A stretch of DNA of 63,848 bases, filler included, from Octopus bimaculoides (GCF_001194135.2; 5 parts of 4 records of this genome joined end to end with filler, not necessarily neighbours in it); one strand, 5' to 3'. Shown: positions 5,956-26,456, numbered from the whole stretch's first letter. The notes: a model not told the origin generated them from the sequence alone. Translations and numbers: made by a program.

Positions 5956-6001
<46 letters not shown>

Positions 6002-7539
6002 CAATAATTCGCTTCCATTAGTATGTCTCATTCCTTTCAACGTCCTTCTCTCTCTCTTCCTCCTCCCTCTCTTCTCCCCCTCCCCTCTTATCCTCCTCCA
6101 CTTCCCCTCTCCTCCCACTTCACCTCTCCCCCTCCACTTCTCCTCCTCTCACCCATCACTTTTACTCCTTAATGGCTGATGATTGCTCGACCCTTATTAC
6201 ACAAGCAATATGGCGTCTCTAGCCTAGACGTGACCATTTAGGAAGAAGCCAGGCCTCGCACGGCACAGTGTAGATAGATGAAGCGTGGCGGACAGTGTCC
6301 TGCGGTGTGGTAGAAGCAGAGGTATTAAAGGGGTATTAAAGAGGAGTAGTGGGCAAGATTAGGGTTATGGGAGGAGGATGCAGGATGCTAAGGAGAAAGC
6401 AATGAACTGAAAAACAATGAGATGCATAGAGATAACGGAAACGAATAATAGATTATACTTGCATTCATATACATATGTACGTGTATGTATACATATCTAT
6501 ATAGACACACACATACACACACACAGATAAAGAAGAAGAAGAAGGTTTAAAATTCACAACAACTGTTTCGGCAGCGTTTTATTGGTGCAACCTTAGATTA
6601 CATCATGGCAAAAAAACCCGCCAACGTCAGGTGACATTCAAACATATAAAGAGGTGAATCAGAAACGTGCGTGCGTGTGTGTGTGTGCGTGTGTTTGTAT
6701 GTGTGTGTGTGTGTGTGTGCGTGTGTTTGTGTGTGTGTATGTGTGNNNNNNNNNNNNNNNNNNNNNNNNNNNNNNNNNNNNNNNNNNNNNNNNNNNNNNN
6801 NNNNNNNNNNNNNNNNNNNNNNNNNNNNNNNNNNNNNNNNNNNNNNNNNNNNNNNNNNNNNNNNNNNNNNNNNNNNNNNNNNNNNNNNNNNNNNNNNNNN
6901 NNNNNNNNNNNNNNNNNNNNNNNNNNNNNNNNNNNNNNNNNNNNNNNNNNNNNNNATATATATATATATATACATATATTCTTTTATTTCTTTTCTTGTT
7001 TCAGTCATCTGACTGCAGCCATGCTGGAGAACCGCCTATATGATATATATCCTATATGATATATCCAACATTGAACTCTTGTTAGAACATCGAATACTGA
7101 TGCATTAGTCTTGAGGTCTTCTCATATAAGCGCACGGGGTGGCACAACTGCATAGACATAAATCGTAGCAAACAAGATACATCTGTCACATCCGTTATGG
7201 GCACCTTCTGTGCTTTTATGCACCAAGCACTATATTAGAGGACCGTCTCAAGGCGAACACCGCAGTATTTGAAGTTCGAACTAGGTATTCACGTTAAGGA
7301 GGATATAAAGATTACCATTTCATATGAATACTGCTTCTGTAGCTAATAATTACTTATACATACCTCGCAATGATTGATCACAAAATCCACAAGTTGTTTT
7401 ATTCTCTCTCTGTTTATTTCCTCTTATTCATTTCTGTTGAAGAGCGTAGGCTCGAAATGTAAAAGACTTTCCCGAACTAATACTTTTGCTTATTGTTCAT
7501 ACTCTACCCGTCTTCGTCTTTTACTTTTCTGTAAATTTC

Positions 7540-7573
<34 letters not shown>

Positions 7574-8651
7574 NNNNNNNNNNNNNNNNNNNNNNNNNNN
7601 NNNNNNNNNNNNNNNNNNNNNNNNNNNNNNNNNNNNNNNNNNNNNNNNNNNNNNNNNNNNNNNNNNNNNNNNNNNNNNNNNNNNNNNNNNNNNNNNNNNN
7701 NNNNNNNNNNNNNNNNNNNNNNNNNNNNNNNNNNNNNNNNNNNNNNNNNNNNNNNNNNNNNNNNNNNNNNNNNNNNNNNNNNNNNNNNNNNNNNNNNNNN
7801 NNNNNNNNNNNNNNNNNNNNNNNNNNNNNNNNNNNNNNNNNNNNNNNNNNNNNNNNNNNNNNNNNNNNNNNNNNNNNNNNNNNNNNNNNNNNNNNNNNNN
7901 NNNNNNNNNNNNNNNNNNNNNNNNNNNNNNNNNNNNNNNNNNNNNNNNNNNNNNNNNNNNNNNNNNNNNNNNNNNNNNNNNNNNNNNNNNNNNNNNNNNN
8001 NNNNNNNNNNNNNNNNNNNNNNNNNNNNNNNNNNNNNNNNNNNNNNNNNNNNNNNNNNNNNNNNNNNNNNNNNNNNNNNNNNNNNNNNNNNNNNNNNNNN
8101 NNNNNNNNNNNNNNNNNNNNNNNNNNNNNNNNNNNNNNNNNNNNNNNNNNNNNNNNNNNNNNNNNNNNNNNNNNNNNNNNNNNNNNNNNNNNNNNNNNNN
8201 NNNNNNNNNNNNNNNNNNNNNNNNNNNNNNNNNNNNNNNNNNNNNNNNNNNNNNNNNNNNNNNNNNNNNNNNNNNNNNNNNNNNNNNNNNNNNNNNNNNN
8301 NNNNNNNNNNNNNNNNNNNNNNNNNNNNNNNNNNNNNNNNNNNNNNNNNNNNNNNNNNNNNNNNNNNNNNNNNNNNNNNNNNNNNNNNNNNNNNNNNNNN
8401 NNNNNNNNNNNNNNNNNNNNNNNNNNNNNNNNNNNNNNNNNNNNNNNNNNNNNNNNNNNNNNNNNNNNNNNNTTATGAAGTCATTCTTTTTTCTTTTTTC
8501 AAATATACCAAACTGTACCAAGGATCTCACATATTTTCCCGTGTGTGTGTGAGTGTGTGTGTGTGTGTGTGTAAGTATTTGTATTATTTCCCTTTTCCAA
8601 AATAACTCTCATATTGAACTCTAAAATTTCCCTCTATTTAACCATCGCACA

Positions 8652-8693
8652 TAGTCTTTGATGAAGGGATATCCCTAAACAGCTGTAGGACTA
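8652..8693 (+). ncRNA. Minimal type I hammerhead ribozyme, inactivated
   Basis: tagtct-TTGATGA-aggga(ta)tccct-AAA-c agct gta-ggacta. Stems I, II and III are all formable and stem III is palindromic (ACAGCTGT). The core has C3 changed to U and lacks G12. Confidence 0.7.
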
Positions 8694-8767
8694 ATTTTCT
8701 TTTTATAAATGTGAAAATTCCACAAAGTCTTGGCTTTGTTGTCTCATTTTATTTAACACACACACAG

Positions 8768-8805
<38 letters not shown>

Positions 8806-9321
8806 TTATACACATATATTTACGCACGCACACACATATGAATATATTTATATATATGTGTGTGTGTGTATGTATAAATGTATGTCTTTCTGCTTGTGTT
8901 TGTCGCCCACCACAGCTTGACAGATGGTGTTTTTTTTTGTTTTTGTTTTTTTGTTTACATCCTTGTAACTTAAGGAATCATTTAATAATCGGCAGAATTA
9001 GTACCAGAGTTTGATGTCGATTTGTTCGACTAAATACTTCAAGGCGGTGGTGTAGCATGGCCGTAGCCTGGATAAAAGATCATATTCATATATTGTATAT
9101 ATATATATATGTAAAGCAAATATGTAGATTAATGTAGACTTATCTTGTATTCAAGGTAAGTCTACAGTAATTCACATATTTATTTTCTTGTGATTTGCCC
9201 TGAATTTACTTCACATTGTTTTGGTCTGACCCACGATCCTTTATACAATATATTCTACACAATGCTACATAGTAATTATTCCATTATAATACACACACAC
9301 GCACATATATATATATGTATG

Positions 9322-9382
<61 letters not shown>

Positions 9383-9482
9383 NNNNNNNNNNNNNNNNNN
9401 NNNNNNNNNNNNNNNNNNNNNNNNNNTTAATTAATTAANNNNNNNNNNNNNNNNNNNNNNNNNNNNNNNNNNNNNNNNNNNN

Positions 9483-9806
9483 TATTGTTGTATTTGGGGA
9501 TGGTCATGTTGCCAGTTTAGCCAATAAAACACATGCACTATATATTTGGTGTTAATTTGCTTCAACTTTATTTTATTTTTTACATTAATCGTATTTCAGC
9601 CAGAGTTCTTTCGTCACACTTCTGTGACCTCATCAGTGGTCCTTTGCTTTCTTCATTCTTACAGAGAAGTTTGACAAAAGAACTCTGGCTGAAATACGAT
9701 TAATGTAAAAAATAAAATAAAGCTGAAGCAAATTAACACCAAATATATAGTGCGTGTGTTTTTATTGGCTAAACTGGCAACATGACCATCCCCAAATACA
9801 ACAATA
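9483..9806. repeat. Long inverted repeat (arms of about 140 bp, loop of about 35 bp)
   Basis: 9483-~9625 is the reverse complement of ~9661-9806, with a few substitutions. Confidence 0.95.
9602..9639 (-). ncRNA. Minimal type I hammerhead motif at the centre of a foldback repeat
   Basis: Minus strand reads cca-CTGATGA-g-GTCACA gaag TGTGAC-GAAA-g aa c TC-tgg. Stem I is 3 bp, stem II is 6 bp, the cleavage triplet is CUC, and there is one extra G before stem II. Confidence 0.65.
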
Positions 9807-9860
9807 TCTGTTTCAACAAACGATTTCACATCAAGAATCTTGCAAAACGAATATATAAAC

Positions 9861-9894
<34 letters not shown>

Positions 9895-10288
9895 ATATAA
9901 AGAATCAGGAGATTCAGAAAAAATTATCTGCGATCTCAAGAGGATTATTGTATATGTATATAAAAGAGACCCCAGTTTTTTTACCCTACTATTTTAATAT
10001 ATATAAATATATGCACATATATATTATTGGTGTGCATGTATGTTTCATGCGAGTGAGTGAGCATATGCATATATGCACGTGGATGTGTGTGTGCGTGCAT
10101 GTGTATGTACATGCTCGCATACGCGGATTCTATGAGCGTGGGTTTACCTTCTTTGACTATTTTTACTTTCTCCCTATTCAGGTAATTTCCCTTTATTTAA
10201 CGGTCATTCTCATAGCTCTTTTGTTTGTCTTCTTCATAGTAATTTCCCTTTATTTAATGGTCATTTCATAGCATTTTTGTTTGTCTTC

Positions 10289-10347
10289 ATAACTGACGAG
10301 ATGCTGGTGCAGACTTCCGCCCCGACATCCGAAACTCTCAGTTTTAT
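10289..10347 (+). ncRNA. Type I hammerhead motif, degenerate
   Basis: ataa-CTGACGA-gatg...catc-c-GAAA-c tctca GTT-ttat. Stem II register is off by one base and the triplet is GUU. Confidence 0.5.
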
Positions 10348-10924
10348 TATGGCTACCAATTAATTGTCACATATTATTTTATTTACATACTATTGAGGTC
10401 TCATTCATTCTTTTGTTGTCATATTATTATAAATGTATATATATATAATAATATAGATTTAATCAAAAGATTAAATGTGGTACTTAAAATGTTTGAGGCA
10501 CCAGAATTTGGTAGGATAAAAATCTATATTATTATTCTGAACTTGCTCACCATTTGGGAGCACATATATTTTTTTCTGGTACTTAATTTTCAACAAAATG
10601 GAAAAGGTTAACATGGAATTCTCATAGAAGGACATCCCCTTACACAGCAAGGAAATGTATACTCTTGTTTTTTTGCAAACATCTTCAAAATGATTTTCTA
10701 AAATGAAATTCCATTATGCAGCTGAGGAGTACATTTTCATTGTACATTCTGTATATTTTTTTCTGGTACTTAATTTTCAACAAAATGGAATTCTCATAGA
10801 AGGACATCCCCTTACACAGCAAGGAAATGTATACTCTTATTTTTTGCAAACATCTTCAAAATGACTTTCTAAAATGAAATTCCATTATGCAGCTGAGGAG
10901 TACATTTTCATTGTACATTCTGTA
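10289..10924 (+). mobile_element. PLE pLTR-like fragment: HHR motif followed by a tandemly duplicated, decayed PLE ORF N-terminus
   Basis: HHR-like motif at 10289-10347. ATG at 10613 gives MEFS*KDIPLHSKEMYTLVFLQTSSK*FSKMKF, resembling Naiad-type N-termini (YSLKNIP..SK..Y...L..K...FIKRMRW). The unit of about 185 bp is duplicated (about 10566-10753 and 10754-10924). Confidence 0.55.
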
Positions 10925-11073
10925 GTGTTCTCACTACATGAATAAATGGAGCTTGTACGAAACGTACGTACTGCTATAACCTATTGAATTTTTGTTGCTT
11001 ATCTTCAAATATATATATATATATATAAATAAATAAATGGAGTTAAACGCAGGTGTTATTCAAATTCTTTTAC

Positions 11074-11156
11074 TTCCGACACGTTTCGAGGACAATATTG
11101 GTATTATTCCAAAGGAATAAAATAGTGTAAAACAATGTAATCTTCCCTTTAGGGAA
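11074..11156 (-). ncRNA. Hammerhead remnant in the 3' pLTR of PLE copy A
   Basis: Minus strand reads ttcc-CTAAAGG (mutated core)...ttattcc ttt ggaataa...gtcctc-GAAA-cgtGTC-ggaa. Homologous to 12869-12942. Confidence 0.6.
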
Positions 11157-12862
11157 ATAAAAAAAATAAAACAAACTCATCAATAAGACATTTTAACAGA
11201 ATATGATGGATATGTATAATGATGAACAGAACGCTATTAAGTTAAAAAAAAATGTTAGAGGATATAACGTCAAGGGTAGCCTGTGGAAAGAAATAAGCAG
11301 AAACCAGATAAATGAGAAATATAGAACAATATGTGAATTAAATAAAAGTCTTAAGTCTTGGAAAAAGATATATCTAGTGGAAGTGAAATATAAGAAGAAA
11401 ATCATTGTTCAAATTATATCTAATGGTAGATATCACTAATATGAACTAAAGGTATGTTTCTGCCAATGTTTACATCGATAAGCACACTCTATAACCGTGT
11501 TTACAAGAGGATTCTTAGAAAAAAGAATATAAAATAGTTCACAATTACAGGGTTGACAAAATATTTTGCCTTTATCATATGGGAATGAAATGGAGAGAAT
11601 CAACCAATTTAAATTAAATTGTTTATTATGGTCATTTAGATACCGAATTAATTTACTAAGCCCTGTACTGTTGTGTTTATTATTATCTCTAAATATAGAG
11701 TAATGATTAGAAATTCTTTTAGATAACTGAAAAGAAGAACTACCTGTATAAAAAAAGACATCGGTACCTGAAGTAATTTTACACTGATATATAGAGTTTC
11801 TAATTTTAGAATTACTAGACATAAACTTAATTCTGTTGAAATTGGCTTCACAGACAATAACCTTGTTATTAATATTTCTTGGGGGATGGTTGGTATTAGC
11901 TAAATTAATGTTAGTATTAGTAAATGGATTCTTATTTAACAGACTAATATTATGTGAGGAGATACTTTGTAAGAGATTTTTAGTGTTGGAAAAGCCAATC
12001 CTAATCGTGTGCGAGCTGATAATAGAGTAATACCTAGAATTCTTTGGAAAATTCCTAATGATAGCTTCCCAAAACTGGAAAGGAAGATTAGATTTAATTT
12101 GCCTCACATAAGGAATAATCAACCAAATAGTTTTGCTATTAGTTGCCTTATTTTTAGTGTATCTTTAAAAGACGATTTACCTTTAGAGTGGAAAAAAGAG
12201 TTTAAATGACGGTTATCTCCCTTCCTCTGTTTGGTGTTGGCGTATAAATTAAAATTGATATCATTTATATCCTTACAACTAGATTTCATGTCTCCATTAT
12301 TAAAGGTAGAATAAGATTGAATGGAATTAATGTAGGTAACTTTATCTGTATAACCTGCTTTAAGTAAGGCAGAGTTATAAAATTCAGCTTTGTTGTTGAA
12401 AATGTCGACATTAGCAGATAACTTTGACAATCTAAATGAAATATACTTAACTAAGTTCTTACTGACTGTCCTAGAATGATTACTGAATTGGCTAATATAC
12501 ATAAGATTGGTCGATGGTTTGTGGTATGGGAAGTATGAATTATTGTGCAAATTAAGTGTAATATCTAAAAAGTTGGCTTTCGTTATATCATCATCAAAAA
12601 CGATGCCTAAGCCTATCCTGCAGGAAAACGTAACTAAACTATTCTTAAACTTTTGTATTTTTTGGTCAGAAACATTTTGAAGATAAAGTAAACAATCACC
12701 ACAATATAGACCTCCATTGATGCTTGGTAACTGGTCTACCATTTCAAGAAGTATATATACAGTCCAAATCAGCTACTTGTGCTGACTCAGAACTTCTCAT
12801 CATAACATCAAAACCATCAGGTGTGTCTTTATGGACCCACATCTTATTGTCAAACTTTATTT
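11074..12862 (-). mobile_element. Penelope-like retroelement copy A (Naiad-like; 5'-truncated RT plus GIY-YIG endonuclease, frameshifted)
   Basis: Minus-strand translation gives IKFDNKMWVHKDTPDGFDVMMRSSESAQVAD, then GLYCGDCLL (degenerate YRDD) and NFLDITL...YFPYHKP, then IWLIIPY and the endonuclease SIYQCKITSGTDVFFYTGSSS..SKRISNH..TGLSK...CQPCNCELFYIL..CKH. A pLTR with an HHR remnant lies at the 3' end. Confidence 0.9.
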
Positions 12863-12868
12863 CTTTAT

Positions 12869-12942
12869 TTCCCTGAAGAGACGATTACATTGACACCATT
12901 TTATTCCTTTGGAATAATACCAATGTTGTCTTTGAAACATGT
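12869..12942 (+). ncRNA. Hammerhead motif in the inverted pLTR at the 5' truncation of PLE copy A
   Basis: ttcc-CTGAAGA-gacgattacattg...ttattcc ttt ggaataa...caatgttgtcttt-GAAA-catgt, then an assembly gap. It is an inverted copy of 11074-11156. Confidence 0.7.
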
Positions 12943-13544
12943 NNNNNNNNNNNNNNNNNNNNNNNNNNNNNNNNNNNNNNNNNNNNNNNNNNNNNNNNNN
13001 NNNNNNNNNNNNNNNNNNNNNNNNNNNNNNNNNNNNNNNNNNCCCCCCCACCAATACCGGAAATCTCTTTCTCTTACTGGACATCCATTTACCCTTCCTC
13101 TCTCACCTCTTATATTGGTAATCTTGCCACCCTCTCTTTCTCCCCACCATCTCTGGACTAACTAAATCAGATAGCACCCGACTTATCCTCTTTTCTCTTT
13201 CTTTTTCTTTTTTGACATTTATATCTGCAGCATCAGTAATGCTTACACTCAGAAAACTCATAACGCTTATATTTCCAACGCCCCAAACACTTTCATATGC
13301 AATACTTCCTCACCCCCACCCCCCAGTAGAGGCAACAACCTTAACAGTTCTAACATATTTGAATGACATTACCCCCTCAGCATAGACAAGCTATTAGTGA
13401 CTTTAGACTTGAGGCCAGATGGATGTCAAAAAGCAGACCAATCTGGAAAAGAAGGACTTGGAAGCTGAAGAACCCTTAACATGGTCAGAGATTTAGGGTT
13501 ATCCTTACATAGAAATTTGATGAAAGGCAGGAGGCGCTACAGTC

Positions 13545-14830
13545 ATGTGACATGGAAGGCAGCTGGGAATTCCTGCGAGACAGCTTGCTGAGTGCCACAG
13601 ACCAAATCTATGGTTGGTGCAAAGTCCCTTCCAGACCTAGAGTAACATGGTGGTGGAACAATACTGTAGACAGGGCCATTAAAGCAAAAAAACAGGCTTG
13701 GAAAGCCTGGTAGAGTGGGGGAACCTCTGTACTTGGCTTTTGTTGTCTTGGAGAAAGCCTTTGACAGGGTACCCCAATCCCTTATCTGGTGGTCAATGTG
13801 GAAACTGGGGATAGATGAGTGGTTGGTAAGAGCTGTACAAGCCCAGTACAGGGATGCTGTCAGTAAGGTGAGGGTTAGCAATGAGTATAGTGAAGAATTT
13901 TGAGTAGAAGTAGGGGTTCAAGAAGGATCAGTCCTCAGCCCCCTCTTATTCATTATAGTCCTCCAGGCAATAACAGAGGAATTCAAGACAGGATGCCCCT
14001 GGGAGCTCCTCTATGCTGATGACCTTGCTCTAATTGCCGAGTGACTGCCAGAACTAGAGACGGAGTTTAGGGTGAGGAAGCAAGGTCTAGAATCGAAGGG
14101 CCTTGTAAAAACCAAAGTCTTAGTAAGAAAGAAGGCTGACAAATCACAAACCCCTTCAGGTAGTTGTCCCTGCTCGATTTGTAGAAAAGGCATGGGTAGA
14201 AACTCCATACAATGTACCCGGTGTAAGCTATGGACACATGAAATGTGCAGCAATATCAAAGGAAGGTTAACCAGGAAAATAATTTTTGTGTGTGGCAGAG
14301 GCACAGGAGCAATAAACACTGAAGATGTACAGAAAACAGATTCCATCACGTGCCAAGGGGAGAAACTAGTACTAGTTAATAGCTTCCGTTACCTAGGCGA
14401 CCAAGTCTGTAGCTGGGGTGGTTGCACTGTGAGTGTAGTGGCTAGAATAAGAATAGCCTGGTCAAAGTTCAGGGAGCTCCTACCTCTGCTGGCAACTAAG
14501 GGCCTCTCACTCATGATGAAATGTAGACTATGATGCATATGTGTGACCTGCCATGCTACACAGCAGTGAAACATGGTCCATGACTGCTGAGGTCATGCGT
14601 AGGCTTGAATGAAATGAAGCTAGTATGATCCACTGATTGTGTAATGTTAGTGTCCACACACGAAAGAGTGTCAGTGCCCTGAGAGAAAAGTTGGACATAA
14701 GCATGAAATGTGGTGTGTGAGAGAGATGACTGCACTGGTATTGTCATGTGCTGCATATGGATAAGGACAGCTGTGTGAGGAAGTGCCCCTCCCTAACTGT
14801 GGAAGGAACCTGGGGAAGAGGTAGACACCC
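13545..14830 (+). mobile_element. RTE-clade LINE fragment (post-endonuclease region fused to the RT C-terminal half; decayed)
   Basis: WWNNTVDRAIKAKKQAWKAW joins directly to LYLAFVVLEKAFDRVP, then GSVLSPLLFIIVLQAITEEFKTGCPWELLYADDL, a CSIC/CTRC/C zinc cluster and FRYLGD. Confidence 0.88.
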
Positions 14831-14879
14831 CCATGATGCATTGTGTTTGAGAAGACATGCTGAGTGAAGTAAAACCAGT

Positions 14880-15270
14880 ATCGTAGCAATGGACAGTGTG
14901 CCCTGACTGGCTCCTGTGCTGGTGACGCATAAAAAGCAGCATCTGTACGTAGCAGATGCAAGTATCTGCTGACCTTTCATAACGCCAGCAACTTCAAGAG
15001 TGTAGTGGGTGCTTTTTAAGTGCTACCAGCACAGGAACCAGTCAGGTGGGCCTGGCATCGATTTCGTTATGAAGGACATCCAGCTGTAGAAANNNNNNNN
15101 NNAACCAGTCAGGTGGGCCTGGCATCGATTTCGTTATGAAGGACATCCAGCTGTAGAAACATTGTCAGATCAGATTGGAGCCTGGTGCAGCCGCTGGCTC
15201 TCCAGACCATGGTCAAACTGTCTAACCCATGGCAGCATGAAAAACGGATGTTAAACAATGATGATGATAT
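14880..15270 (+). repeat. RTE-related 3' tail/SINE ending in (ATG)n
   Basis: The ...aggacatccagctgtagaaac...catggcagcatgaaaaacggatgttaaacaatgatgatgat tail recurs in reverse at 31100, 42180 and 43500. Confidence 0.6.
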
Positions 15271-15291
15271 TCCATATATATATATGCATAC

Positions 15292-15326
<35 letters not shown>

Positions 15327-15761
15327 CAAAGAGAAAACTTTCTTGGAAATGGATGTGTGGCATTCAATCATATAATAATATAAATAATATATAAATATAT
15401 ATGCATACACACACATACATATATTTGTATATGCATGCATATATGGGCACAGGGCTCCAACGACCGTAAACAACATGAAATAAACATAAAATACGCAAAC
15501 ATGAAATACGAAATACGACAACATGGAATACAAACGTTTTTTGGGAACAACGAAAGAAACAAACGGAAAACGAGACAAGCAACACAAAAAAACGACTCCT
15601 TATCAGTTGTTGGCTGTTTTTCTACTTTGTACTTTAAGCATTTCACAACAAGATACATTTTCAGCATAACAGTTGCTCTCGCAAAGCAAATTAAATAAAA
15701 TTTGGGATTGTTTTTATTACCAGTTTTGACCCTCCGCGAAATTCCAAATTTTATTGGAGTC

Positions 15762-16140
15762 GCCACTATGAAAGGTTGCTCAATAAAGAGAATGAATGGG
15801 AGAAAGAGAGCCTGCTGCATGTCGACCCAACAGAGGGACTAGCTATCCGAATTGACAGTACGTTGGTAGATAAAGCAATTAGGAGTATGAAGACAGGGAA
15901 AGCCTCCGGCCAATCAGGACTCACCGCAGAGATGCTCAAAATATCTGGCAGTGTTAGTTATAGCCTAGTCACCTGTATAGTGAACCAGGTGATACATGAA
16001 GGAGTCATACCCAATGACTGGTGTAGCAGCACCATAGTCAACTGCTACAAAGGTAAAGGTGACGCTTTAGATACAAATAATTACAGAGGTATCAAGTTGT
16101 TCGATCAGGTAATGAAGGCCACGGAGAGGGTCATAGCCCA
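15762..16140 (+). mobile_element. RTE LINE fragment (endonuclease-RT linker and RT N-terminus)
   Basis: RHYERLLNKENEWEKES...KAIRSMKTGKASGQSGLTAEMLK...IPNDW...YKGKGDALDTNNYRGIKL. Confidence 0.85.
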
Positions 16141-16759
16141 GGTAAGAGAGACAAATGCGCACACAAACACACACGCACACACACCTGTGTGTGTGTGTGT
16201 CTACATATATGTATATGTATATGTGTGTGTGTGTATACAACCTTCAAGAAAGTAAGTCATGTATACATATCAGTACATAAACAGTACATATCAGTACATA
16301 AACATTTGTTCACATGTACATACACATGTACACAGACACGTCTACACACCTGATTACTCATGTACATCCATAAGCACATCCGTGCATACTTACATACATA
16401 CATGCATAAGCATGTACACAGATGCATATGCACACACATATACATACATGCATACATACATACGTACATATATATCATGAACTAACTGTTACTTACTCAG
16501 ATGCAGCATGGAATTTTGTCAGTGAACAGGTTGCCGTCTCAAAGCACCGAAAATATTTTGGCAAATTAAATTTAAATGTTGAAGTGAATCTAACGATTTT
16601 TGTGTGTTTTTTTGTGTTTCTTGAATGGCTTATAAACACCTTCCACGCTGCAATTGTTTTCGTTCCATCACACGATCTCAGATCAGGTCACTTGCTATGC
16701 AAGTACATCTCTGTAATATATATATATACACTTATATATATATATATATATACTTATAT

Positions 16760-17599
16760 AAAATCAAAAAAGGATAAAATCTTTTACAAGAATTTTATCA
16801 GGAAGCTAGTGTACAAAAAAATTTGTAAGGGAAATTTCTATTCCCAAGAATATACTTATTTGTTTATATATATATAAAGGGCATTACTACAGAATAATAC
16901 CACACACTAGACTTCCCAAGTAAACACATTTTAGTACCGAATGCGAGGAAAACGACTTTTGAAAGAAACCAACATTTAAAAAAAAATAAACTCAACTATG
17001 TATCGACCGATTTCACGATTACCAGAATGTCAGCATAGTATAGTATCAACATATACAAATGAACAGAATTCTTACCTTACCAAAACGAACACGCATGTAT
17101 CCGGCCCGGCAATGGGAATGATGTTTATCCACATACATCGGTAAAAAAGCGGGAATCTTTCTGAGTTGTTCTCAGTACTCGTGTAAAAGACCGGAATAAA
17201 ATTCAGCATTGAATATATTCCGGATATATATTTTTGGTTAATAAAATCAAAAAAAGATAAAATCTTTTACAAGAATTTTATCAGGAGGCTAGTGTGCAAA
17301 AAAATTCGTAAGGGAAATTTCTATTCCCAAGAATATACTTATTCGTTTATATATATATAAAGGGCATTACTACAGAATAATGCCACTCACTAGACATAAA
17401 CACATTTTAGTACCAAATGCGAGGAAAACAACTTTTGAAAGAAACTAACATTTAAAAAAAAATAAACTCAACTATGTATCGACTGATTTCACGATTACCA
17501 GAATGAAATCTAGTTTCTGTTTGTCAGCATAGTATAGTATCAACATATACAAATAAACAGAATTCTCACCTTACCAAAATGAATACGCATGTATCCGGC
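16760..17599. repeat. Tandem duplication (unit of about 480 bp, second copy partial)
   Basis: 16760-17104 is repeated at 17242-17599 with a few substitutions and indels. Confidence 0.9.
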
Positions 17600-17649
17600 A
17601 CTGAGATTCTCTGTTTCGATCACAACATTTTTGTTTAAATCTCACTTGA

Positions 17650-17890
17650 ATCTTGCATGTGTCCTGGCCTCCTCAAAGCTTACACTCCATACTTTTGCTC
17701 ACCATCCAGCTTGATCCGAAGCAAGGGGTTCTGAGGCCATTGGATCCATTCCAAGTGACTTCATGGTAGTCCTTATGCTCTCCTTAAACCTGTTTTTGTG
17801 TTTACACCAGTTGCGTTTGACTTTGCAAGCTCGCCATAATACAGATCTTTGGGTGTGCATTTATCTGCCATTCAAACAATATGGCCAGAC
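17650..17890 (-). mobile_element. RTE/BovB-like LINE 3' ORF fragment
   Basis: Minus strand gives MRWSGHIV*MADKCTPKDLYYGELAK, like the LRWAGHVVRM..R.PK.L.YGEL consensus. Confidence 0.65.
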
Positions 17891-18311
17891 CATCTCATTT
17901 GATTTTTCATATATACACATTCTCTTATTCTTTTACTTGTTTCAGTCATTTGACTGTGGTCATGATAGAATACCTCCTTTAGTTGAACAAATCGACCCTA
18001 GGACCTATTCTTTGTAAGCCTAGTACTTATTCTATCGGTCTCTTTTGCTGAAGCACTAGGTTATGGGGATGTAAACAACCAACATCAGTTGTCAAGCGAT
18101 TGTGGGGGGACAAATACACAAGCACAAATACACACGCACACGTGCTTCTTTCAGTTTCTGGCTACCAAATCCACTTATAAGAAGACTCTTGCTCAAGTTG
18201 CTGTGCAGTGGGATTGAACCTGGAACCATGTGGTTGGGAAGCAAGGTTCTTATCACACAGCCACTCCTGCACCTATACACAGCCAGTCCTGTCCCTATAT
18301 ATATGTATATA

Positions 18312-18368
<57 letters not shown>

Positions 18369-18370
18369 AT

Positions 18371-18740
18371 TTTTGCTAGTTTATTTTGTCTCTCTGTCTT
18401 CTCTCCTGGTCCTGTATGAACATTTAATGTGGTTTTAGAGTCAAGATTTGGCTGCTATATCTAGCATGGTGGTATCTTTTAGATACCCTTAATTATAATT
18501 TTAATAATAATTACTACCTATGAGGTTTTTATTCCCATGCTAGCCCCTTGATATGAATAGTATTTTAAATAACGATCTTATCCTTATTTATATAAATTTA
18601 TATATTTACTTCGACATTATATTCACTGCATTGGTATTTTGATCAAATCGCACAAGGAGTTTAGGTGGCTAATTTAAACTGGTTGTGTGCATACGTGCAT
18701 ATATTTGTATGTATACATGCGTATATGTAAGTATTCGTAT

Positions 18741-18775
<35 letters not shown>

Positions 18776-18958
18776 ATTTATGTACTATTTTGCTAGTATT
18801 CCACTGATGAAGCAAAGCATTTCTTATGCAAAGCCAGAAATCTGGGATCTGGAATTATCCAACAATTTTGTCTCTTTGTCTTCTCTCCTGGTGCTGTATG
18901 AACATTTAATGTGGTTTTAGAGTCAAGTTTTGGCTGCTATATCTAGCATGGTGCTATC
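18371..18958 (+). repeat. Direct repeat pair; the second copy contains an HHR that the first lacks
   Basis: 18371-18476 matches 18788-18958 except for an extra segment of about 65 nt containing the HHR. Confidence 0.85.
18798..18855 (+). ncRNA. Type I hammerhead motif with imperfect stem II
   Basis: attcca-CTGATGA-(agcaaagcat ttctt atgcaaagcca)-GAAA-tc tgg gaTC-tggaat. Stem I is 6 bp, stem III is 3 bp, the triplet is AUC, and the base of stem II is unpaired. Confidence 0.6.
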
Positions 18959-19059
18959 ACCCCCCCACACATATATGTTATATGTGTATATATTTATGTT
19001 ATATGTATATGTATATATATAGGTTATATGTATATGTGTATATATTATATGTATATGTG

Positions 19060-19094
<35 letters not shown>

Positions 19095-19099
<5 letters not shown>

Positions 19100-19235
19100 C
19101 TGAACATAAGAAGCGTCAGTAGTGGTGTGCAAGAGAGACGATTGCGCTGGTTTGGACATGTGGTGAGAATGAATGAGGATAGCTGCGTGAAAAAAGTGCC
19201 ACTCCCTAACAGTTGAGGGAACCCGTGGAAGAGGT
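19095..19235 (+). mobile_element. RTE LINE C-terminal fragment
   Basis: KLNIRSVSSGVQERRLRWFGHVVRMNEDSCVKK, cut off by a gap. Confidence 0.75.
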
Positions 19236-20103
19236 ANNNNNNNNNNNNNNNNNNNNNNNNNNNNNNNNNNNNNNNNNNNNNNNNNNNNNNNNNNNNNNNN
19301 NNNNNNNNNNNNNNNNNNNNNNNNNNNNNNNNNNNNNNNNNNNNNNNNNNNNNNNNNNNNNNNNNNNNNNNNNNNNNNNNNNNNNNNNNNNNNNNNNNNN
19401 NNNNNNNNNNNNNNNNNNNNNNNNNNNNNNNNNNNNNNNNNNNNNNNNNNNNNNNNNNNNNNNNNNNNNNNNNNNNNNNNNNNNNNNNNNNNNNNNNNNN
19501 NNNNNNNNNNNNNNNNNNNNNNNNNNNNNNNNNNNNNNNNNNNNNNNNNNNNNNNNNNNNNNNNNNNNNNNNNNNNNNNNNNNNNNNNNNNNNNNNNNNN
19601 NNNNNNNNNNNNNNNNNNNNNNNNNNNNNNNNNNNNNNNNNNNNNNNNNNNNNNNNNNNNNNNNNNNNNNNNNNNNNNNNNNNNNNNNNNNNNNNNNNNN
19701 NNNNNNNNNNNNNNNNNNNNNNNNNNNNNNNNNNNNNNNNNNNNNNNNNNNNNNNNNNNNNNNNNNNNNNNNNNNNNNNNNNNNNNNNNNNNNNNNNNNN
19801 NNNNNNNNNNNNNNNNNNNNNNNNNNNNNNNNNNNNNNNNNNNNNNNNNNNNNNNNNNNNNNNNNNNNNNNNNNNNNNNNNNNNNNNNNNNNNNNNNNNN
19901 NNNNNNNNNNNNNNNNNNNNNNNNNNNNNNNNNNNNNNNNNNNNNNNNNNNNNNNNNNNNNNNNNNNNNNNNNNNNNNNNNNNNNNNNNNNNNNNNNNNN
20001 NNNNNNNAGCACAGGTGTCTATGACAGACTATGTTATTTTGCCAACCTGGTTTACATATAGAAGTACAAATTACATAAGGAATTAGAGGATGAACAGAAG
20101 TTT

Positions 20104-20232
20104 AATCTTACAGTTGTTTCGGCCTAGTTTTAGCATGCCCCATTCTATCCGAATATTTCTTGCTGGAGTGATTATCGGATGACATGTTGAAATGGGGTTA
20201 CATGCCCGAACCGCTAGGCCTCTTCAGAGATT
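20104..20232 (-). ncRNA. Type I hammerhead ribozyme with intact core and long stem II
   Basis: Minus strand reads aatct-CTGAAGA-GGCCTAG...CTAGGCC-GAAA-c aact GTA-agatt. Stem II continues as gcatg/catgc, ccccatt/aatgggg and tccga/tcgga helices. Confidence 0.85.
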
Positions 20233-20842
20233 CACAAAGGGTTTCATACAAATGTAGAGCAAGAGGTAAAAACAGAGGTGTGGTAGAGACCAGAAGAAAA
20301 ACAACAGCAAAAATAAGGTAGAAATAAAAATAAAAAATAGAATTAAAGTCAAAATAAAAATAAAAATAAGACTACAGCAGGAAAAAAATAATAATAAAGA
20401 ACACATATATGAAAAATGAAGGTATAGCATGTGGGACATGTAAAAATATATAAAAACGATATATGTAAAAAAAACCTTAAGAATACAAGGCACACAAAGA
20501 GCCTACAAACATTATAAATAGGTAGCTATAGACACTCCAATGCATATGTATATGTGTGGGTTCGTGCGTATAACCTTACTCGGATGTCCCCTTACTCCCA
20601 TGTGTGTATATACAAGTATTTATAAACATATACGTTGTTTGTGGCATCAGCGTTATTAGCCGTATCTAGAAAGCTGTAAGTGTTTTTTAGAAAGGAAGTT
20701 TTGTTGAGTGTGTGTGTGTCATTTCTATATATTTTGGAAGGTTCTATGTAGAAGTTCATTTTACACAAGTTATTAATGTTCCAGTAGCAATAACAGTGAT
20801 GATGACGATGATGATGATAACAACAACAACAACAACAATAAT

Positions 20843-23800
20843 AATGTAATTTTAGCGGCCCGTAAATCTATCATTAAATTTAACAACAAACTTTGGATCT
20901 GTAAGGATACTCCGGATGCTTTTGATGTTCCTATGGGAAGTTCGGACTCAGCTCAAATAGCCGATGTGGTCTGTTCGTATGTATTATATGAAATGGCAGA
21001 CCAGTTCCCTAATATTAAGGAAGGTCTTTATAGGGACGATTGTCTCCTATACCTCCATAAGGCCTCTGCCCAGGGTATACAAAAAGTTAAAAATAGATAA
21101 GCCAGATTCTTCAAAAGAATGGGCTTTGGCATTGTTTTTGAGGATGAGGTCTCTGTGGCAAACTTTCTGGACGTTACCTTAGATTTACTCAATACTCATT
21201 TCCCATTCCATAAGCCTTCAACTAATCTCAAGTACATAAGCCCCTTTAGTAACCATCCAAGACATATAACCAGTAATTTAGTTAGGAATATCTCAATTAG
21301 GCTTCCCAAACTTTCTTCTAACTCCCAAATCTTCAGTAAGGAGGCTGACTTCTATAATTCAGCTTTATTAAGGGCTGGCTATAAGGAAAAGGTAGTGTAC
21401 ATTAACTCTTCTAGTGATCTTTCCCCTCCTACACAGCATGATACCCCCTTTATTAGCGTAGATGAACCCATGTCTATTCCTTCCCATTCTTCTCACTTTA
21501 CTGAGAAAGTGGGTCATCCTCTTAACTCACATAAGAGAAGTGCCCTAACTGGTCCCAAATACTTCAAGAAATTAAAAAATCCTTGCATGTTTAACCACTC
21601 TAATACTACATCTAGATCTGTTGATAATAATAAGAATATCTGGCTCATCCTCTCGTTTGGGAAGCAGGTCAAATCAGATTTGGTCCGACAGTTCCGAGAC
21701 GCGGTGAGTAGGAATTTCCCTAAAGGCTCCCACTATTACCCAATTGTCAACTCGCATAAGGTTAGATTTGGATTTTCGAACACCAAAAATTTGTTACAGA
21801 TCATATCTTCCCACAATCTCAGGTTTTTGGATTCATCTATAGATGGCCATCCTAATCATAACCATAATATTAGTAATGTTCAAACCTGTAGCAATAATAA
21901 TTACTCCAACAATTTAACCCACACAAATAATGACATTAATCAGTTAGATATTGGTATAGGTAGTATGCCCAATATTGGGGATCACATAAATATCTGTAAC
22001 AATAATAAGATTAGCAATAAGATTAGCATCTCGGAATTAAATCCTAATAGAATCAGGTTTTTGAGTGCGAACTCAAGGACCAAAAATGTAGTCTATCAAT
22101 GCAAGGTAACTTCTAACACTGATGTTGCATACTATGTAGGTAGCTCATCGACACAGGTATCCAAGAGAATCTCGAATCATTATTTGTTGTTTAGAGATAG
22201 AAATAAAGCTAGCACTACTGGCCTAAGTAAATTTATTTGGGAACTGAAGGATTGCAATAAGCAATTCTCTTTGGAATGGTCCATACTGGCCACCTCAGTT
22301 CCCTATGACAAGGGGAGGGAATTCTGCCCTCTTTGTAACTTCGAGCTTTTTTATATCCTGTTCTCCAAGAATTGCCTATTTAACCAAATCACTCAGAGGG
22401 CGTACCGCTGTCAGCACTTGAAGAAACATACCTTCTTTTATTACCGTTAGCTCCATCATTCCTACTAGGTTAGGTTCCAAGCAGTATTTTTATTATAGTT
22501 ATTATCATTAATTAAAAAAATTTTTTTTTTAACTAATATCTTATGAATAATTTCCACTTCTTCCACCACAACTTGCCTTTTCCCCTTCTATAGTTGATAA
22601 ATTTTTTCCTTCCCAGTAATTACAGCTAAGGCTACCTTGTATCACCAGCTGCTTTGCCCTAGATCTCCTTATTAGCATGTATATTGTTATTATTATTATT
22701 ATTTCTCAGCGAACACCCTGTACTTCGGTTTTACACTGATTAGCGCTAACATAAGTATACTAATCAATATATAACAGAGTAATGGTATTTCTTTTATCAT
22801 GTTTATGCTCTTCGCTTCAAATCAGTATGTTATTAATCTTAATATTATTAATCTTAATATAATCTTAAACAAAACACGTGTGTGTATTTGGGTACATATA
22901 TGCATACGTGTGTTTGTGAGGGTGGGCGTGTGTGGGTGTGTGAATGGGTGCATGTGTGTGTGTGAGTATGTATATGTGTGTGTATATATATACATACATA
23001 CAAGTGTGTATATATATACAAATGTGTGTGCCAGCATGTATGTGCATGCGTGCATATATAGGTGTGTGCATGTGTGGTTGTTTGCACGTTTGTATATATA
23101 CAGGAATGTATGTATATAAACAGGCAAGCAAGTAAAGGTGCGCGCGTGTGCATATGTATATGTGAAGGCTTCGGTATGGGTGTGTATGTGTTTGACTCTA
23201 TGTGTGTGAATGGGTATGTATACATAAGTATATGTACATATGTATATGTATGTGTGCACATGTATGAGCACGGGGCGTGTGTATGTGTGTATATGGGTGC
23301 AGGTGCGTATGTGTATGTATATATATATATATGTAGGTGTATATACATATATGCATGCATGTATGCGTATGTATGTATGTGCGTGTGTGGGTATTTGCAT
23401 GTTTGTATATATACAGGAATGTAGGTATATATACAGGCACGTATGTATAGGTGAACGTGTATGTACATATGTATATGTGAAGGTTTCTGTATGGGTGTGT
23501 GTGTGTATGTGTGTGTATGCGTATATATACATGGGTGTACGTATATGTGCATGTGCGTACACACACGTGTTTGTACATATGTGTGGGCGCGCCAGCACAC
23601 ACATATGTAAGCATTCACTATACTTATCTCCCCATATTCAAGTAACTCTTTGGCCTCAACCTTTAGCATCACGTCAAAAACACCCTCCCTTTATATTTCT
23701 ATGTAAACTAGTGTTCTTATTCCTAAAGCCCATGGAACAATATCGTTGACCCCGTTATATCTCTATGTAAACAAACCTTCTAACGGTCACTGACCATGTA

Positions 23801-23953
23801 ACATCTCAGCTCGTAAGTTACTCAATTATTTCGTTTTTGTCTTGCTATTACATGTTTTATTATGATCTCCCTGAAGAGAAATAAGTGAGGACTCCAACAG
23901 CTCTTTCTTCTTTGTGAAAGAACTATCATTTATTTCGAAACATATATGTAGGA
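20843..23953 (+). mobile_element. Penelope-like retroelement copy B (Naiad-like; 5'-truncated RT plus GIY-YIG, long 3' region ending in an HHR)
   Basis: One reading frame runs 20843-22450 with a single stop (TAA 21098-21100). It reads ARKSIIKFNNKLWICKDTPDAFDVPMGSSDSAQIAD...GLYRDD (YRDD at 21029-21040), NFLDVTL, then the endonuclease NVVYQCKV..YYVGSSS..SKRISNH..TGLSKFIWELK...CPLCNFELFYIL..CQH. The link of the HHR at 23868 to this copy is inferred from position and orientation. Confidence 0.9.
23868..23953 (+). ncRNA. Type I hammerhead ribozyme with intact core, 11-bp stem II and palindromic stem III
   Basis: tcc-CTGAAGA-GAAATAAGTGA...TCATTTATTTC-GAAA-c atatat GTA-gga. CATATATG is palindromic. 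Confidence 0.85.
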
Positions 23954-24259
23954 ATTAAAGGAACTTTCATCGACATGCTTTTTGCTCCATTTATTATTAT
24001 CCATATCTTCTCAAACTGTATCACTTTAACTCGGTATATCAACCTGTAAAGCGGCTGGGATATCTTGTTTTTTAGTGTAATTTTGCTACCCCTGGTAACT
24101 ATTAACATATTCAAATTATCGAAAGTTTTAATAACTGAGATAATATTAATATATACATAAACTAATATATATATATATATCATATTATATCACTATATTA
24201 TTTATGTAAATTCTTATTTGTGCTAGATCTGAAGTTGGAAAAGACCTAAATGAAACTAG

Positions 24260-25815
24260 TCCAAAATACTAGTGCATGCTACTTCTGCGAAAACAGATAC
24301 CATTAACAAACACTTTGTTCTGCTTGTGAAATAGAATGGGATTTCTGCCACTAAGTCAGTCATTTTGAGGTTTGTTTCTCTTAAAAAGAAAAAGAAAAAA
24401 GAAACTAGGGTTACATTCCCAGTAACAAGGTAGCCATTGTAAAAACAAAGGAATGTTATTAAGTTCATTATGTAATCTATGGTTGACTACTAAATCAAGA
24501 TTATTGCTGGTGCTGTACAAAGGAAATCTCAGCAGTAGAAATTATTAACATCGAGTTATTTGATTATGAGCTACATTTGAGTCTGGAGCAACTTTGTCTT
24601 TCACAAGAGAGAATCATTTATGGCAATATCCAAGTCCCTTTGCTATTAGAGAATACATAGTGCAGGTTGTAACTGTATATGGTAAGGCTGTTGGGAAAAA
24701 TGCATGCTGATGTCAAATTACAAATCTTACCTGAATACATGGAACCTGTTAGTCTTGACACTGGGTTTTAATAGCTTGAATTCTGGAGATGTGCAAATAA
24801 GTATTTAATACAATTCTTTAAGTTTGACCTTGATGCAACCTGTTTCTTGTTTTGAATTCATTCACCCGGATGCCAACCCAACCATTTGTTACATGAAACT
24901 GAATGTTCTCTAAATATGGGTGGGAATTATTCATTGGGATGGGACAATTCCCAAAATTATTCAACAAAGTTGTTCCTAGTGGTATTTACATGTGCACATG
25001 GCCAAGTAATGGATTACATCTGAACTGAATTTTATATTTCACTTGTGTACCCTAAACCAAGGATTGCTGAAATTGCCAAAAGCCATCTATACTAGACTTA
25101 AACAGAAAATCATTTTTGAGAAAATCATTGTAGGACTCTCCTTATTTTCAATCTTCATATATATGCCATTCATAATGTTGAAAGCTTTAATTTAATTGTA
25201 GAATAAATTGAGAAGTTTAACAGACATTTAGAACTTGACAGTTTCAAACCAACCCAAAATTGTAAGCAAAGTAGATTGGCTACCTCAGCTTCTTTCAACA
25301 AATAATCTCACATGGTCAAACTCTTTTTCTCTAAACAGAGAAGAAATGGATGCTTGTGAATCACCCAGTATTATCCTGTATTAGTAAAAGTAAAATGTTT
25401 CTACTGATAAATTTATTTCATGGCTGTTATTTTATTAATATTTCTTCAATTTTGAGAGTCCAGCTTGTTTGCTTACAATTTTGGGTTGGTTTGAAACTGT
25501 CAAGTTCTAAATGTCTGTTAAACTTCTCAATTTATTCTACAATTAAATTAAAGCTTTCAACATTATGAATGGCATATATATGAAGATTGAAAACACCCTA
25601 AGAAAATATTTTGCCTGATTTTAAACCTTTTGTTGATTGTACTCTTGTTCCTGAATTGTCTCATATTTGTATTCCTTTTCTTGAAATATTTTTCTCTGTG
25701 TCATTGCAGATATCAGTCAGTAAGTTCCATGTAAAATCTGCATTTGAAACAGTGCTAAAAAGAACATCATTGTTGATGTTCACCATTTCATTTAAAACAT
25801 TTTCTGGCCTGTAAT
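24260..25815 (+). pseudogene. Decayed KDZ/HMGXB3-like transposase remnant (tentative)
   Basis: Fragments appear in the expected order: CYFC..CSAC, VVFTCAHGQV, HPVL...NLFHG, CTLVPELSH...EIFFS. They resemble the CPHG, HP..DRFH and LVPEL..EQLFS motifs of HMGXB3-type KDZ transposases as I recall them. There are many stops and frameshifts. Confidence 0.4.
25145..25593. repeat. Apparently perfect 126-bp inverted duplication with a spacer of about 200 bp
   Basis: 25145-25270 is the reverse complement of 25468-25593. Confidence 0.9.
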
Positions 25816-26284
25816 GAAATGCATTTGGAGAGTTTCATAATAATAAAATGTGATCTTTCCCAGTAACTCTGATAATTTCAGTTATTATATTCAGTGAACC
25901 AGCAGCTTAAACATCATTTATGTAATTGAGCTTTGGAAACTTTGTGATCAGTTATGAATGCAGAGAAAAAACTTAGCATTGTAATTTAGCAGACAGCTTT
26001 GGTTTCAGTTAAATATCCTATTTTGACATTTCTGTCACTCTTTTTAAGATTTTATACTTTTCCATATTTTGTCACTTATATTGCAACTTTTCTTCTTGTG
26101 ATTATCTGGTTTTGACTTATAATTTCCCCACTATCCTCTTTTTAGTTTTATTAGCTGGTTCCTTATCGTGCTTTATTTCTATGCTATTCAATCACTATAT
26201 TGCATGTTGCCTACTTTTTATGCTGTATGATTTTCAAGACTTGTCATGCTGGCTTCACAATAAATTATATTTTATATTTCAAAG

Positions 26285-26456
26285 GAAAAGAACAGTGTAC
26301 AGAGAGAGCTGGTGAAGAAAGCCACAAAAGAGGGTTTGCCTGTCTATTCAGAGCAAAGAACTCAAATTCTTTCTCAAGATGTCATTGATGAATCATTACT
26401 TTTAAGCGATCTCCATAACATCAATGAATTTGCTGCAGTTGAGTTCATACTCTCAG
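26285..26456 (+). CDS. NUP205: Nucleoporin Nup205, internal coding exon (N-terminal region, 172 nt, phase 0 to phase 1)
   Basis: Acceptor ...atatttcaaAG| and donor |GTaatg. Translates EKNSVQRELVKKATKEGLPVYSEQRTQILSQDVIDESLLLSDLHNINEFAAVEFILS(G). This aligns without gaps to the human Nup205 segment PKNVQQHEKVQKASTEG...EAFILSDLFDIGELAAVELLLAG as I recall it. Confidence 0.92.

Follow-up and report, generated by a model that had tools for sequence, protein, structure and literature searches.

In the window analysed here, a stretch of 63,848 nucleotides from Octopus bimaculoides, a first reading of the sequence listed eight hammerhead ribozyme motifs and two retroelements within some 15 kb near the gene NUP205, which raises the question of what these motifs are, why they lie together and whether they bear on the gene. 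We consider it highly probable that the locus is an accumulation of 3'-end remnants, likely dead, that stem from Penelope-like elements (PLEs) of several families, each with a type I hammerhead, and that at least the right-hand part of it likely falls within an intron of NUP205.

Hammerhead motifs and their stems

Hammerhead cores follow the consensus CUGANGA...GAAA...UH, which agrees with the published table of Hydra-clade hammerheads. We scanned the window with a type I descriptor requiring this core and three stems, with stem I open and stem II of up to 170 nt allowed, and used 40 block dinucleotide shuffles as control; the scoring was set after the motifs had been seen and the contrast is therefore somewhat optimistic. 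Five intact-core hammerheads score at least 11, against none in each of the 40 shuffles, and at a score of at least 7 there are again five with an intact core, against a shuffle mean of 0.125 (maximum 2), so the expectation that the motifs exceed shuffled controls was borne out. The type I core and three stems, stem I open, are present in five complete motifs (9600, 10289, 10889, 20104 and 23868). All eight matches scoring at least 7 fall within 6554-23953, and the three matches at 24.3-63.8 kb (scores 5-6) are at chance level. The hammerhead motifs are thus real, with about a dozen copies, intact or decayed; weak relics at about 7437(+) and 24230(+), near chance level, are excluded from the counts.

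The original prediction was correct in place and strand for all eight of its motifs, as judged by scan and folds: four are complete, one is cut by a gap (12869) and three are damaged (8652, 11074 and 18798). The scan recovered five of these eight, and 11074, 12869 and 18798 are by-eye calls. Its remark that no hammerhead was seen elsewhere stands for 24.3-63.8 kb, but it had missed 10889-10974(+), 6634-6554(-), 17039-16995(-) and 17533-17471(-). The Rfam hammerhead models, which it had proposed as a check, match none of the motifs, neither at gathering score within 8400-24200 nor, over the five intact motifs, even at E<=10. On the whole window, microsatellite-driven miRNA matches are among the matches listed by Rfam (best 150 of 282), and a stricter early descriptor returned 10889 alone.

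The leftmost motif, at 6554-6634(-), is a degenerate type I hammerhead with A9 changed and a stem II domain of about 54 nt (scan score 8.9, fold); it lies 28 nt from (TG)n. A degenerate minimal hammerhead at 8652-8693(+) (score 7.3) has C3U, has lost G12 and keeps a palindromic stem III, ACAGCTGT. The inverted-repeat insertion at 9483-9806 combines an inverted arm containing a full hammerhead with a 5'-truncated sense arm, the arms differing at 2 of 118 sites; the minimal hammerhead at 9600-9639(-) (scan, fold) has an intact core, a CUC triplet, H17 at 9603, an unpaired G after A9, a 6-bp stem II and a 3-bp stem I. At 10289-10347(+) the scan found an intact core with a GUU triplet and a decayed stem II, whose active fold is strongly disfavoured. 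Repeat analysis revealed a 171-bp partial tandem of 1.8 copies at 10613-10924(+), with copy 1 ending within a hammerhead, and the overlooked motif at 10889-10974(+) (scan, fold) has an intact core, a 58-nt stem II domain, a GUA triplet, H17 at 10970 and a palindromic stem III, ACGTACGT.

To the right of the first retroelement, a partial tandem with a 483-bp period at 16761-17599(-), identified by repeat analysis and ending at (TA)n, carries one relic per copy (16995-17039 and 17471-17533; score 7.6 for one copy) with damaged core and stem II, for which we infer a hammerhead origin; the 17471-17533 relic is among the weakest and near chance level. The hammerhead at 18798-18855(+), called by eye, has an intact core and a broken stem II base, and its 94-bp tail is duplicated at 18383-18476. 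The best-folding long motif, at 20104-20232(-) (scan, fold), has an intact core, a 100-nt stem II domain, a 5-bp stem I, a GUA triplet and H17 at 20109. The last one, at 23868-23953(+) (scan, fold), has an intact core, a 58-nt stem II domain, a 3-bp stem I, H17 at 23950 and a palindromic stem III, ACATATATGT, and its strand is sense to NUP205.

Stem II domains of 54-100 nt thus occur in five motifs or pairs (6554, 10889, 11074/12869, 20104 and 23868), and 9600 and 8652 have the short helix II expected of minimal PLE hammerheads (7-8 bp with a small loop). The G10.1-C11.1 pair is present in all five intact motifs, two of which have one unpaired base beside the stem, and the stem III/loop 3 palindrome is perfect in 10889, 23868, 8652 and 12869 and imperfect in 20104, 9600 and 10289. 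With 40-nt flanks, the predicted share of the active fold is at most 0.006 for all five intact motifs and at most 2e-5 for the three sense ones, in estimates that take no account of dimers or tertiary contacts. For solitary copies in the genome the prediction is little cleavage or none.

Elements A and B and their 3' ends

A PLE profile made from Hydra-type proteins only returned exactly two ORF stretches over the window, 11436-12860(-) and 20825-22456(+), and Pfam recognised neither ORF. Element A (11035-12942(-)) is, by ORF analysis and PLE profile, a 5'-truncated Hydra-like PLE with a broken frame, consisting of the end of the reverse transcriptase (RT) core, the thumb and, C-terminally, a GIY-YIG nuclease. 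[quoted passage not shown] Both have the RT followed by a C-terminal GIY-YIG in one ORF, the arrangement that defines the Hydra clade. The conserved E and N are flanked by CxxC and CxH (CPLC...CQH in B, CQPC...CKH in A), and a by-eye comparison with the published Hydra alignment shows agreement in the RT and nuclease motifs. Of the eight full-length homologues examined, seven carry RW[KR] and all eight carry DKT, the window copies themselves being 5'-truncated. Of 83 homologues whose nuclease start could be scored, 75 have a C.C-x3-9-C pattern, and the linker CxCX5C ahead of the nuclease is absent in A, B and four close homologues. Because of this absence, A and B are, judged from their sequences, assigned to a Hydra-like sublineage and not to the Hydra clade plainly; in a tree built from search matches only, they fall on a long-branch sublineage. 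They probably represent an octopod sublineage of Hydra-like PLEs that combines a cysteine-free linker with a long stem II.

The hammerhead of element A, called by eye at 11074-11156(-), has a damaged core (G5A, A9G) and a stem II domain of about 60 nt. It lies about 270 nt past the stop codon, the 3' tail is 46 nt from (TA)n near 11010-11030, and the 10889(+) motif and element A stand tail to tail on one TA array. An inverted 5' copy of this hammerhead at 12869-12942(+) (z=24.6; 12 of 88 sites differ) has an intact core and reaches an N gap at 12943 before stem I closes. The 23868 motif is collinear over about 300 nt with the 3' end of element A (score 60.5, z=6.0, where shuffles reach 47 at most, in a comparison of 78 pairs), so the earlier statement that the stems are unrelated apart from the 11074/12869 pair was wrong for it. 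By-eye reading of the alignment between 11074/12869 and 23868 indicates that stems and palindrome were kept despite divergence, both partners having changed in two pairs of stem II. The 23868 motif is homologous to the element A hammerhead and is likely element B's own 3' hammerhead; a TA run lies 212 nt beyond it. We also considered 20104(-) as the inverted end of element B, which was not supported: its z of 2.7 against the element A end is below the shuffle maximum, no pair with 23868 or the B 3' UTR is among the best 16 of 78, and an apparent nuclease remnant upstream of it was unsupported by the PLE profile search.

Insertion history, clustering and NUP205

Arm and tandem divergences range from about 1.4 to 15% (among them 1.4%, 1.7%, 4.3%, 4.3% and 13.6%), with the reservation that low arm divergence could reflect gene conversion or assembly collapse. 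These values point to repeated insertion, and the original prediction holds in this respect, as it does for PLE hammerheads of several families and for their clustering within the window (below). The element nuclease would cut (TA)n-rich DNA and the RT would copy the RNA from its 3' end; where the RT stops early, 5'-truncated copies would remain that retain the hammerhead but not the ORF, in many cases together with a second copy in inverted orientation, and elements arriving later would insert into these TA arrays again or next to existing copies. In an active parent, the hammerhead would process multimeric transcripts, likely in dimeric form via its palindromic stem III and aided by protein. 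Partial tandems and 5'-truncated copies in inverted orientation have been published as a PLE signature (PMC8557442). PLEs tend to insert beside earlier PLE copies, and even in dimeric form their hammerheads show poor cleavage (PMC6765202; PMC4209133), one of them having required protein for in vitro cleavage (PMC11167929). Three observations speak against a pile of PLE ends: no Rfam hammerhead model matches, TA targeting alone cannot account for the clustering, and most RT-less fragments have no ORF remnant (Hydra-type profile) to tie them to a parent clade.

The eight matches scoring at least 7 occupy 27% of the readable window, with P=6e-4 under uniform placement (0.012 for the five intact motifs), in a window that was chosen for its cluster and with insertions that are not independent. 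Some 49% of 6.5-24.3 kb is PLE-attributable with generous boundaries, and the insertions are of several ages. A true insertion hotspot, with a density well beyond that of the genome at large and maintained by open chromatin or by PLE-into-PLE targeting, would account for this and is a possibility that we consider less likely than not, as PLE-attributable DNA over the whole window is about 13%, only twice the 6.83% (190 families) of the O. vulgaris genome, and 4-8 fragments per window would be expected anyway if their mean length is assumed to be 0.5-1 kb. By this comparison the local pile-up is modest. Of ten motifs, eight have an end no more than 130 nt away from a microsatellite or a gap (gaps in two of the eight), against 17-22% of random positions. 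TA density was rejected as the sole cause of the clustering: (TA)n per 10 kb amounts to 15.9 in the cluster and 11.2 downstream, against 43.9 in 1-6500.

The RT-less motifs, mostly without an ORF remnant in the Hydra-type profile, have inverted and partial-tandem ends and adjoin (TA)n, and for this reason we read them as truncated insertions and not as retrozymes. That they are non-autonomous retrozyme-type elements spreading as small circular RNAs is improbable: the absence of an adjacent ORF from most motifs, the short tandems of 171 and 483 bp and the occurrence of retrozymes in a mussel (PMC7229834) would fit, but no tandem contains two complete hammerheads, the ends are of PLE type (inverted truncated arm, partial tandem, TA-adjacent tail) and 23868 is homologous to an ORF-linked 3' end. 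The proposed HHR-only, retrozyme-like derivatives are therefore not supported, since complete canonical hammerheads do not occur here in a head-to-tail array and since 23868 likely belongs to an RT element. A high-copy repeat of the window had no match in a metagenome scan.

As to the gene, NUP205 exons are confirmed. The one nearest to the cluster, an internal coding exon at 26285-26456(+) preceded by an AG acceptor, matches about residues 59-116 of the Argonauta protein, and the following coding exon lies at 32117-32335(+) (protein match; Pfam Nup192, E=2e-8); they match Argonauta at 87% and 92%. The first 58 or so residues of Argonauta NUP205 had no match in the readable window by protein comparison and profile search. 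Because these first coding exons are absent, at least 20008-26284, which is gap-free, is likely NUP205 intron, a placement that depends on an exon being absent from an assembly with gaps. The cluster, originally placed upstream of a NUP205 exon, thus likely lies inside the gene, and the predicted poor cleavage of lone copies would explain why sense copies are tolerated in this essential gene.

In one database protein, P0177, a stretch of 346 residues from element B is fused to NUP205, and the join fits a 6-nt micro-exon at 25710-25715 with AG/GT ends; the other NUP205 model (P0155) starts without a Met at the 26285 exon. The simplest account of P0177 is that gene prediction made up in this way for exons that the assembly lacks. 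The chimera is a warning of mis-annotation and would become weightier if transcripts confirm it. We regard co-option, with the sense 23868 hammerhead cutting the pre-mRNA or element B serving as an alternative first exon, as very unlikely. The intact core of 23868, 2.3 kb before the exon acceptor, the fitting micro-exon and the intronic ribozymes known in other genes (PMC6765202) would agree with it, but 23868 has a stem I of 3 bp and a predicted active-fold share of about 2e-6 with flanks, and Argonauta NUP205 has no element-B insertion. Equally little credence is given to the joint reading, in which a long-stem-II class in octopods would be combined with such co-option at NUP205 (23868 cutting pre-mRNA or element B spliced in). 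That repeat DNA rich in AT produced the motifs by chance, as the missing Rfam match, the tuned scoring and the near-chance relics (7437, 17471-17533 and about 24230) might suggest, is practically negligible, being refuted for the five intact motifs by the shuffles and opposed by the hammerhead past the element A stop codon and by the stems, palindrome and two-sided stem II changes of 11074/12869 and 23868.

Comparison with known systems

Metazoan non-LTR retrozymes (Cervera and De la Pena 2020, PMC7229834) resemble the solitary motifs in being non-coding, with a type I hammerhead and low GC, but they form head-to-tail repeats of 150-450 bp with a canonical hammerhead per unit, an array that the window does not contain. 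The original prediction had called the two elements Naiad-like. Naiads are indeed PLEs of cephalopods with a (TA)n preference and inverted and tandem insertions, whereas their nuclease is N-terminal and they have no canonical hammerheads (PMC8557442), the opposite of A and B, and the name must be dropped.

The published minimal PLE hammerheads share with the window motifs the type I topology, short stem I, G10.1-C11.1 and a short stem III, whose palindrome, frequent in the published motifs, is perfect in part of the window motifs; in both, the motifs are mostly solitary and derive from truncated PLEs, with opposite-strand pairs and many families per genome. The 9600(-) motif follows this pattern down to the unpaired base after A9, whereas five window motifs or pairs have stem II domains of 54-100 nt in place of the 7-8-bp helix. 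Many PLE hammerheads of several families close together are ordinary for a genome with about 7% PLEs and have been published in other animals. The long-stem-II hammerheads are unseen by Rfam, and cephalopod ribozyme counts may accordingly be low.

Hammerheads in PLEs are known, and the Hydra-clade RT with C-terminal GIY-YIG and 3' hammerhead has already been described from Octopus bimaculoides, as Hydra-1_Obim among the C-terminal EN+ PLEs (Craig et al. 2021, PMC8557442). A and B share with this clade the order of RT and C-terminal GIY-YIG, the RT motifs FDVxMG, GLYRDD, NFLDVTLDL and SNHP, the CxxC/CxH around E and N, the 3' type I hammerhead, the (TA)n-adjacent tail and the inverted 5' copy. 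They belong to another family than Hydra-1_Obim, with another hammerhead (0 of 6 window motifs occur in the supplement of PMC8557442), and they differ from the clade in low-complexity Asn-rich insertions, in an N.NR[IL].F.S.NS-type linker motif in place of CxCX5C and in a stem II domain that measures about 58-60 nt, where the published Hydra table gives about 11-25 nt. The unusually long stem II and the altered endonuclease linker look new, and Lunse et al. 2016 (PMC5785218) and the supplements of PMC4209133 and PMC7229834 may already list octopus motifs or ones with a long stem II. On balance we lean towards an unrecognised class of octopod PLE hammerheads with a 55-100-nt stem II, missed by Rfam and short-spacer descriptors and carried partly by a Hydra-like sublineage that has lost the zinc-finger linker and continues to land at (TA)n. 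It has been proposed that the zinc finger in the linker directs PLEs to (TA)n (PMC8557442), and a sublineage without it, whose element A is still found at (TA)n, makes this idea testable genome-wide.

Hammerhead motifs and their clustering

Both strands of the window, in which 6,574 of 63,848 bases are N and microsatellites are many, were scanned with a type I hammerhead descriptor (at most two core defects, stem II domain of at most 170 nt) whose scoring was fixed only after the motifs had been viewed; 40 block dinucleotide shuffles served as the control. Five motifs, at 23868(+), 20104(-), 10889(+), 10289(+) and 9600(-), scored at least 11, every one with an intact core, against none in the shuffled sequence, and to this extent the motifs withstand comparison with shuffled controls. 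Three further motifs, at 6554(-), 17471(-) and 8652(+), scored 7-9, versus a shuffle mean of 0.375 at scores of at least 7. The original prediction had listed eight hammerheads: five were recovered by the descriptor and the other three are visible by eye, namely 11074(-) with two core changes, 12869(+) truncated by a gap and 18798(+) with a broken stem II base, whereas the intact motif at 10889 had been overlooked. The observation was largely right, and its labels partly wrong. Rfam gave no hammerhead match, even at E<=10 for the five intact motifs, which is likely explained by the long stem II for three of these five. Possible relics at 7432-7470(+), with a UUGAAGA core and short stem, and at about 24221-24260(+), with a GAAACUAGUC half and palindromic stem III, are too weak for counting.

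All eight matches scoring at least 7 lie within 6554-23953, or 27% of the readable bases. Under uniform placement this gives P=6e-4 (0.012 for the five intact motifs alone), values that show merely local clumping because the window was picked for this cluster and insertions of Penelope-like elements (PLEs) are not independent. PLE-attributable DNA, with generous boundaries, amounts to about 7.6 kb, or 13% of the window; within 6.5-24.3 kb it makes up 49%. Given that PLEs form 6.83% of the O. vulgaris genome, in 190 families (PMC13282606 supplement), 4-8 fragments are expected per window at an assumed size of 0.5-1 kb, and the dozen or so found here is roughly twice that average. The density of (TA)n across the window does not track the cluster.

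Other repeats are also present. Fragments of a non-LTR reverse transcriptase (RT) element with a PHD-like finger (Pfam PF00628, RVT_1), which we take to be RTE-like, lie at 13400-14830, 15700-16140 and 32510-33170, and a broken LTR-retrotransposon pol fragment (RNase H, integrase zinc finger, rve) at 34799-35932(-). At least five copies of a SINE-like dispersed repeat of about 210-400 bp, 68-86% identical, occur at 4273-4493, 17909-18274, 26791-27711, 49482-49915 and 60221-60397.

Element ends, ages and predicted activity

In element A, one of two PLE coding elements (about 11035-12942(-)), the 3' hammerhead lies at 11074 and is repeated in inverted orientation at the 5' end, at 12869; the two differ at 12 of 88 sites. 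This is the arrangement drawn for PLEs in PMC8557442. The 3' end of A aligns collinearly with 23868 plus flanking sequence (z=6.0), which makes this motif the likely 3' hammerhead of the second element, B (about 20828-22450(+)); a microsatellite-like tract would have pushed it away from the B ORF. In our reading of the alignment with the A copy, the two motifs retain stem I and the palindrome of stem III, and in two base pairs of stem II both partners are changed. Alignment gave no support for 20104(-) as part of B.

Motifs without an adjacent RT ORF also show PLE-type ends, with an inverted pair at 9483-9806 and partial tandems at 10613-10924, 16761-17599 and 18383/18865, and for eight of ten motifs the distance from the motif end to a microsatellite or gap is at most 130 nt. 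Among these RT-less motifs, the arms of the repeats diverge by 1.4-4.3%, as against 13.6% for A, and so the insertions came at different times. Retrozyme-like derivatives had also been proposed; no array in the window holds two complete hammerheads, and the definition of retrozymes in PMC7229834 therefore does not fit.

PLE hammerheads are described as widespread, mostly solitary, weakly active and likely to function as dimers (PMC4209133), and PLEs as often inserting beside older copies (PMC6765202). One PLE hammerhead needed protein for cleavage, and insertion in vitro did not depend on this hammerhead (PMC11167929). The window copies would be mostly inert products of truncated insertion. 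A folding model that includes 40-nt flanks and ignores tertiary contacts and dimers predicts for the active fold a share of 0.006 in 20104, 8e-4 in 9600 and at most 2e-5 in the three sense motifs.

NUP205 context

Two exons at 26285-26456(+) and 32117-32335(+), 87% and 92% identical to Argonauta NUP205, encode residues about 59-188 of that protein. For residues 1-58 the readable window offers no counterpart, and 20008-26284 is gap-free, so B, 20104 and 23868 likely lie within the intron before the 26285 exon; the remaining cluster is intronic too, unless missing exons sit in gaps. Splicing can tolerate cuts within introns. Sequence after about residue 188 is likewise absent from the readable window, and the intron after 32335 exceeds 31 kb unless exons sit in gaps.

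In the database protein P0177 (1387 aa), 346 residues of B are followed by a 6-nt micro-exon, which encodes Ile-Ser and is bounded by AG and GT, and then by NUP205 (21119-22156, 25710-25715, then 26285 onward, (+)). This chimera is likely a patch made by gene prediction, an artefact of the gene model. At the micro-exon, the acceptor carries a strong pyrimidine tract, and another donor (GTAAGT) lies 4 nt downstream. A 126-bp inverted repeat (25145-25270 and 25468-25593, 100% identical, 197 bp apart), likely in the NUP205 intron, is either a young foldback/MITE or an assembly artefact.

Coding elements and known Penelope-like elements

A profile built from 154 homologues matched two stretches only, A at 12860-11436(-) and B at 20825-22456(+). 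Both are 5'-truncated and run in the order RT, thumb, then GIY-YIG; the closest named homologues of the window proteins come from Octopus sinensis and Argonauta hians, which marks the source as an octopod. Trees of the nuclease (132 rows) and RT-thumb (126 rows), which are limited to rows covering at least 60% of the region and carry no labelled outgroups, each place A and B on a long branch in a clade with support of 0.999, together with five Logan proteins in the former and P0001 of O. sinensis in the latter. A and B are referred to here as a "Hydra-like sublineage". The O. sinensis proteins P0001 and P0024, named 'myb-like protein I' and 'uncharacterized DDB_G0288805-like', are misnamed fragments of it.

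Published work already covers PLE hammerheads, the clustering of these motifs and the presence of Hydra elements in octopus. In the open-access literature, PMC8557442 was the only paper retrieved that deals with octopus hammerheads, and long-stem-II PLE hammerheads or a cysteine-free linker came up in none, though subscription papers and supplements may describe such cases.

According to PMC8557442, which already lists a Hydra family of O. bimaculoides, Naiads have an N-terminal nuclease and lack canonical hammerheads, and Hydra elements have a C-terminal nuclease, hammerheads and (TA)n insertion. The earlier label "Naiad-like" does not fit A and B, whose GIY-YIG is C-terminal. They share this C-terminal nuclease with Hydra elements, and the window ORFs agree by eye with the published Hydra alignment. 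They differ from Hydra in the linker: its cysteines are kept in 75 of 83 scorable homologues, whereas in A, B and the database homologues P0024 (O. sinensis), P0029, P0066 and P0077 CxCX5C is replaced by a cysteine-free motif.
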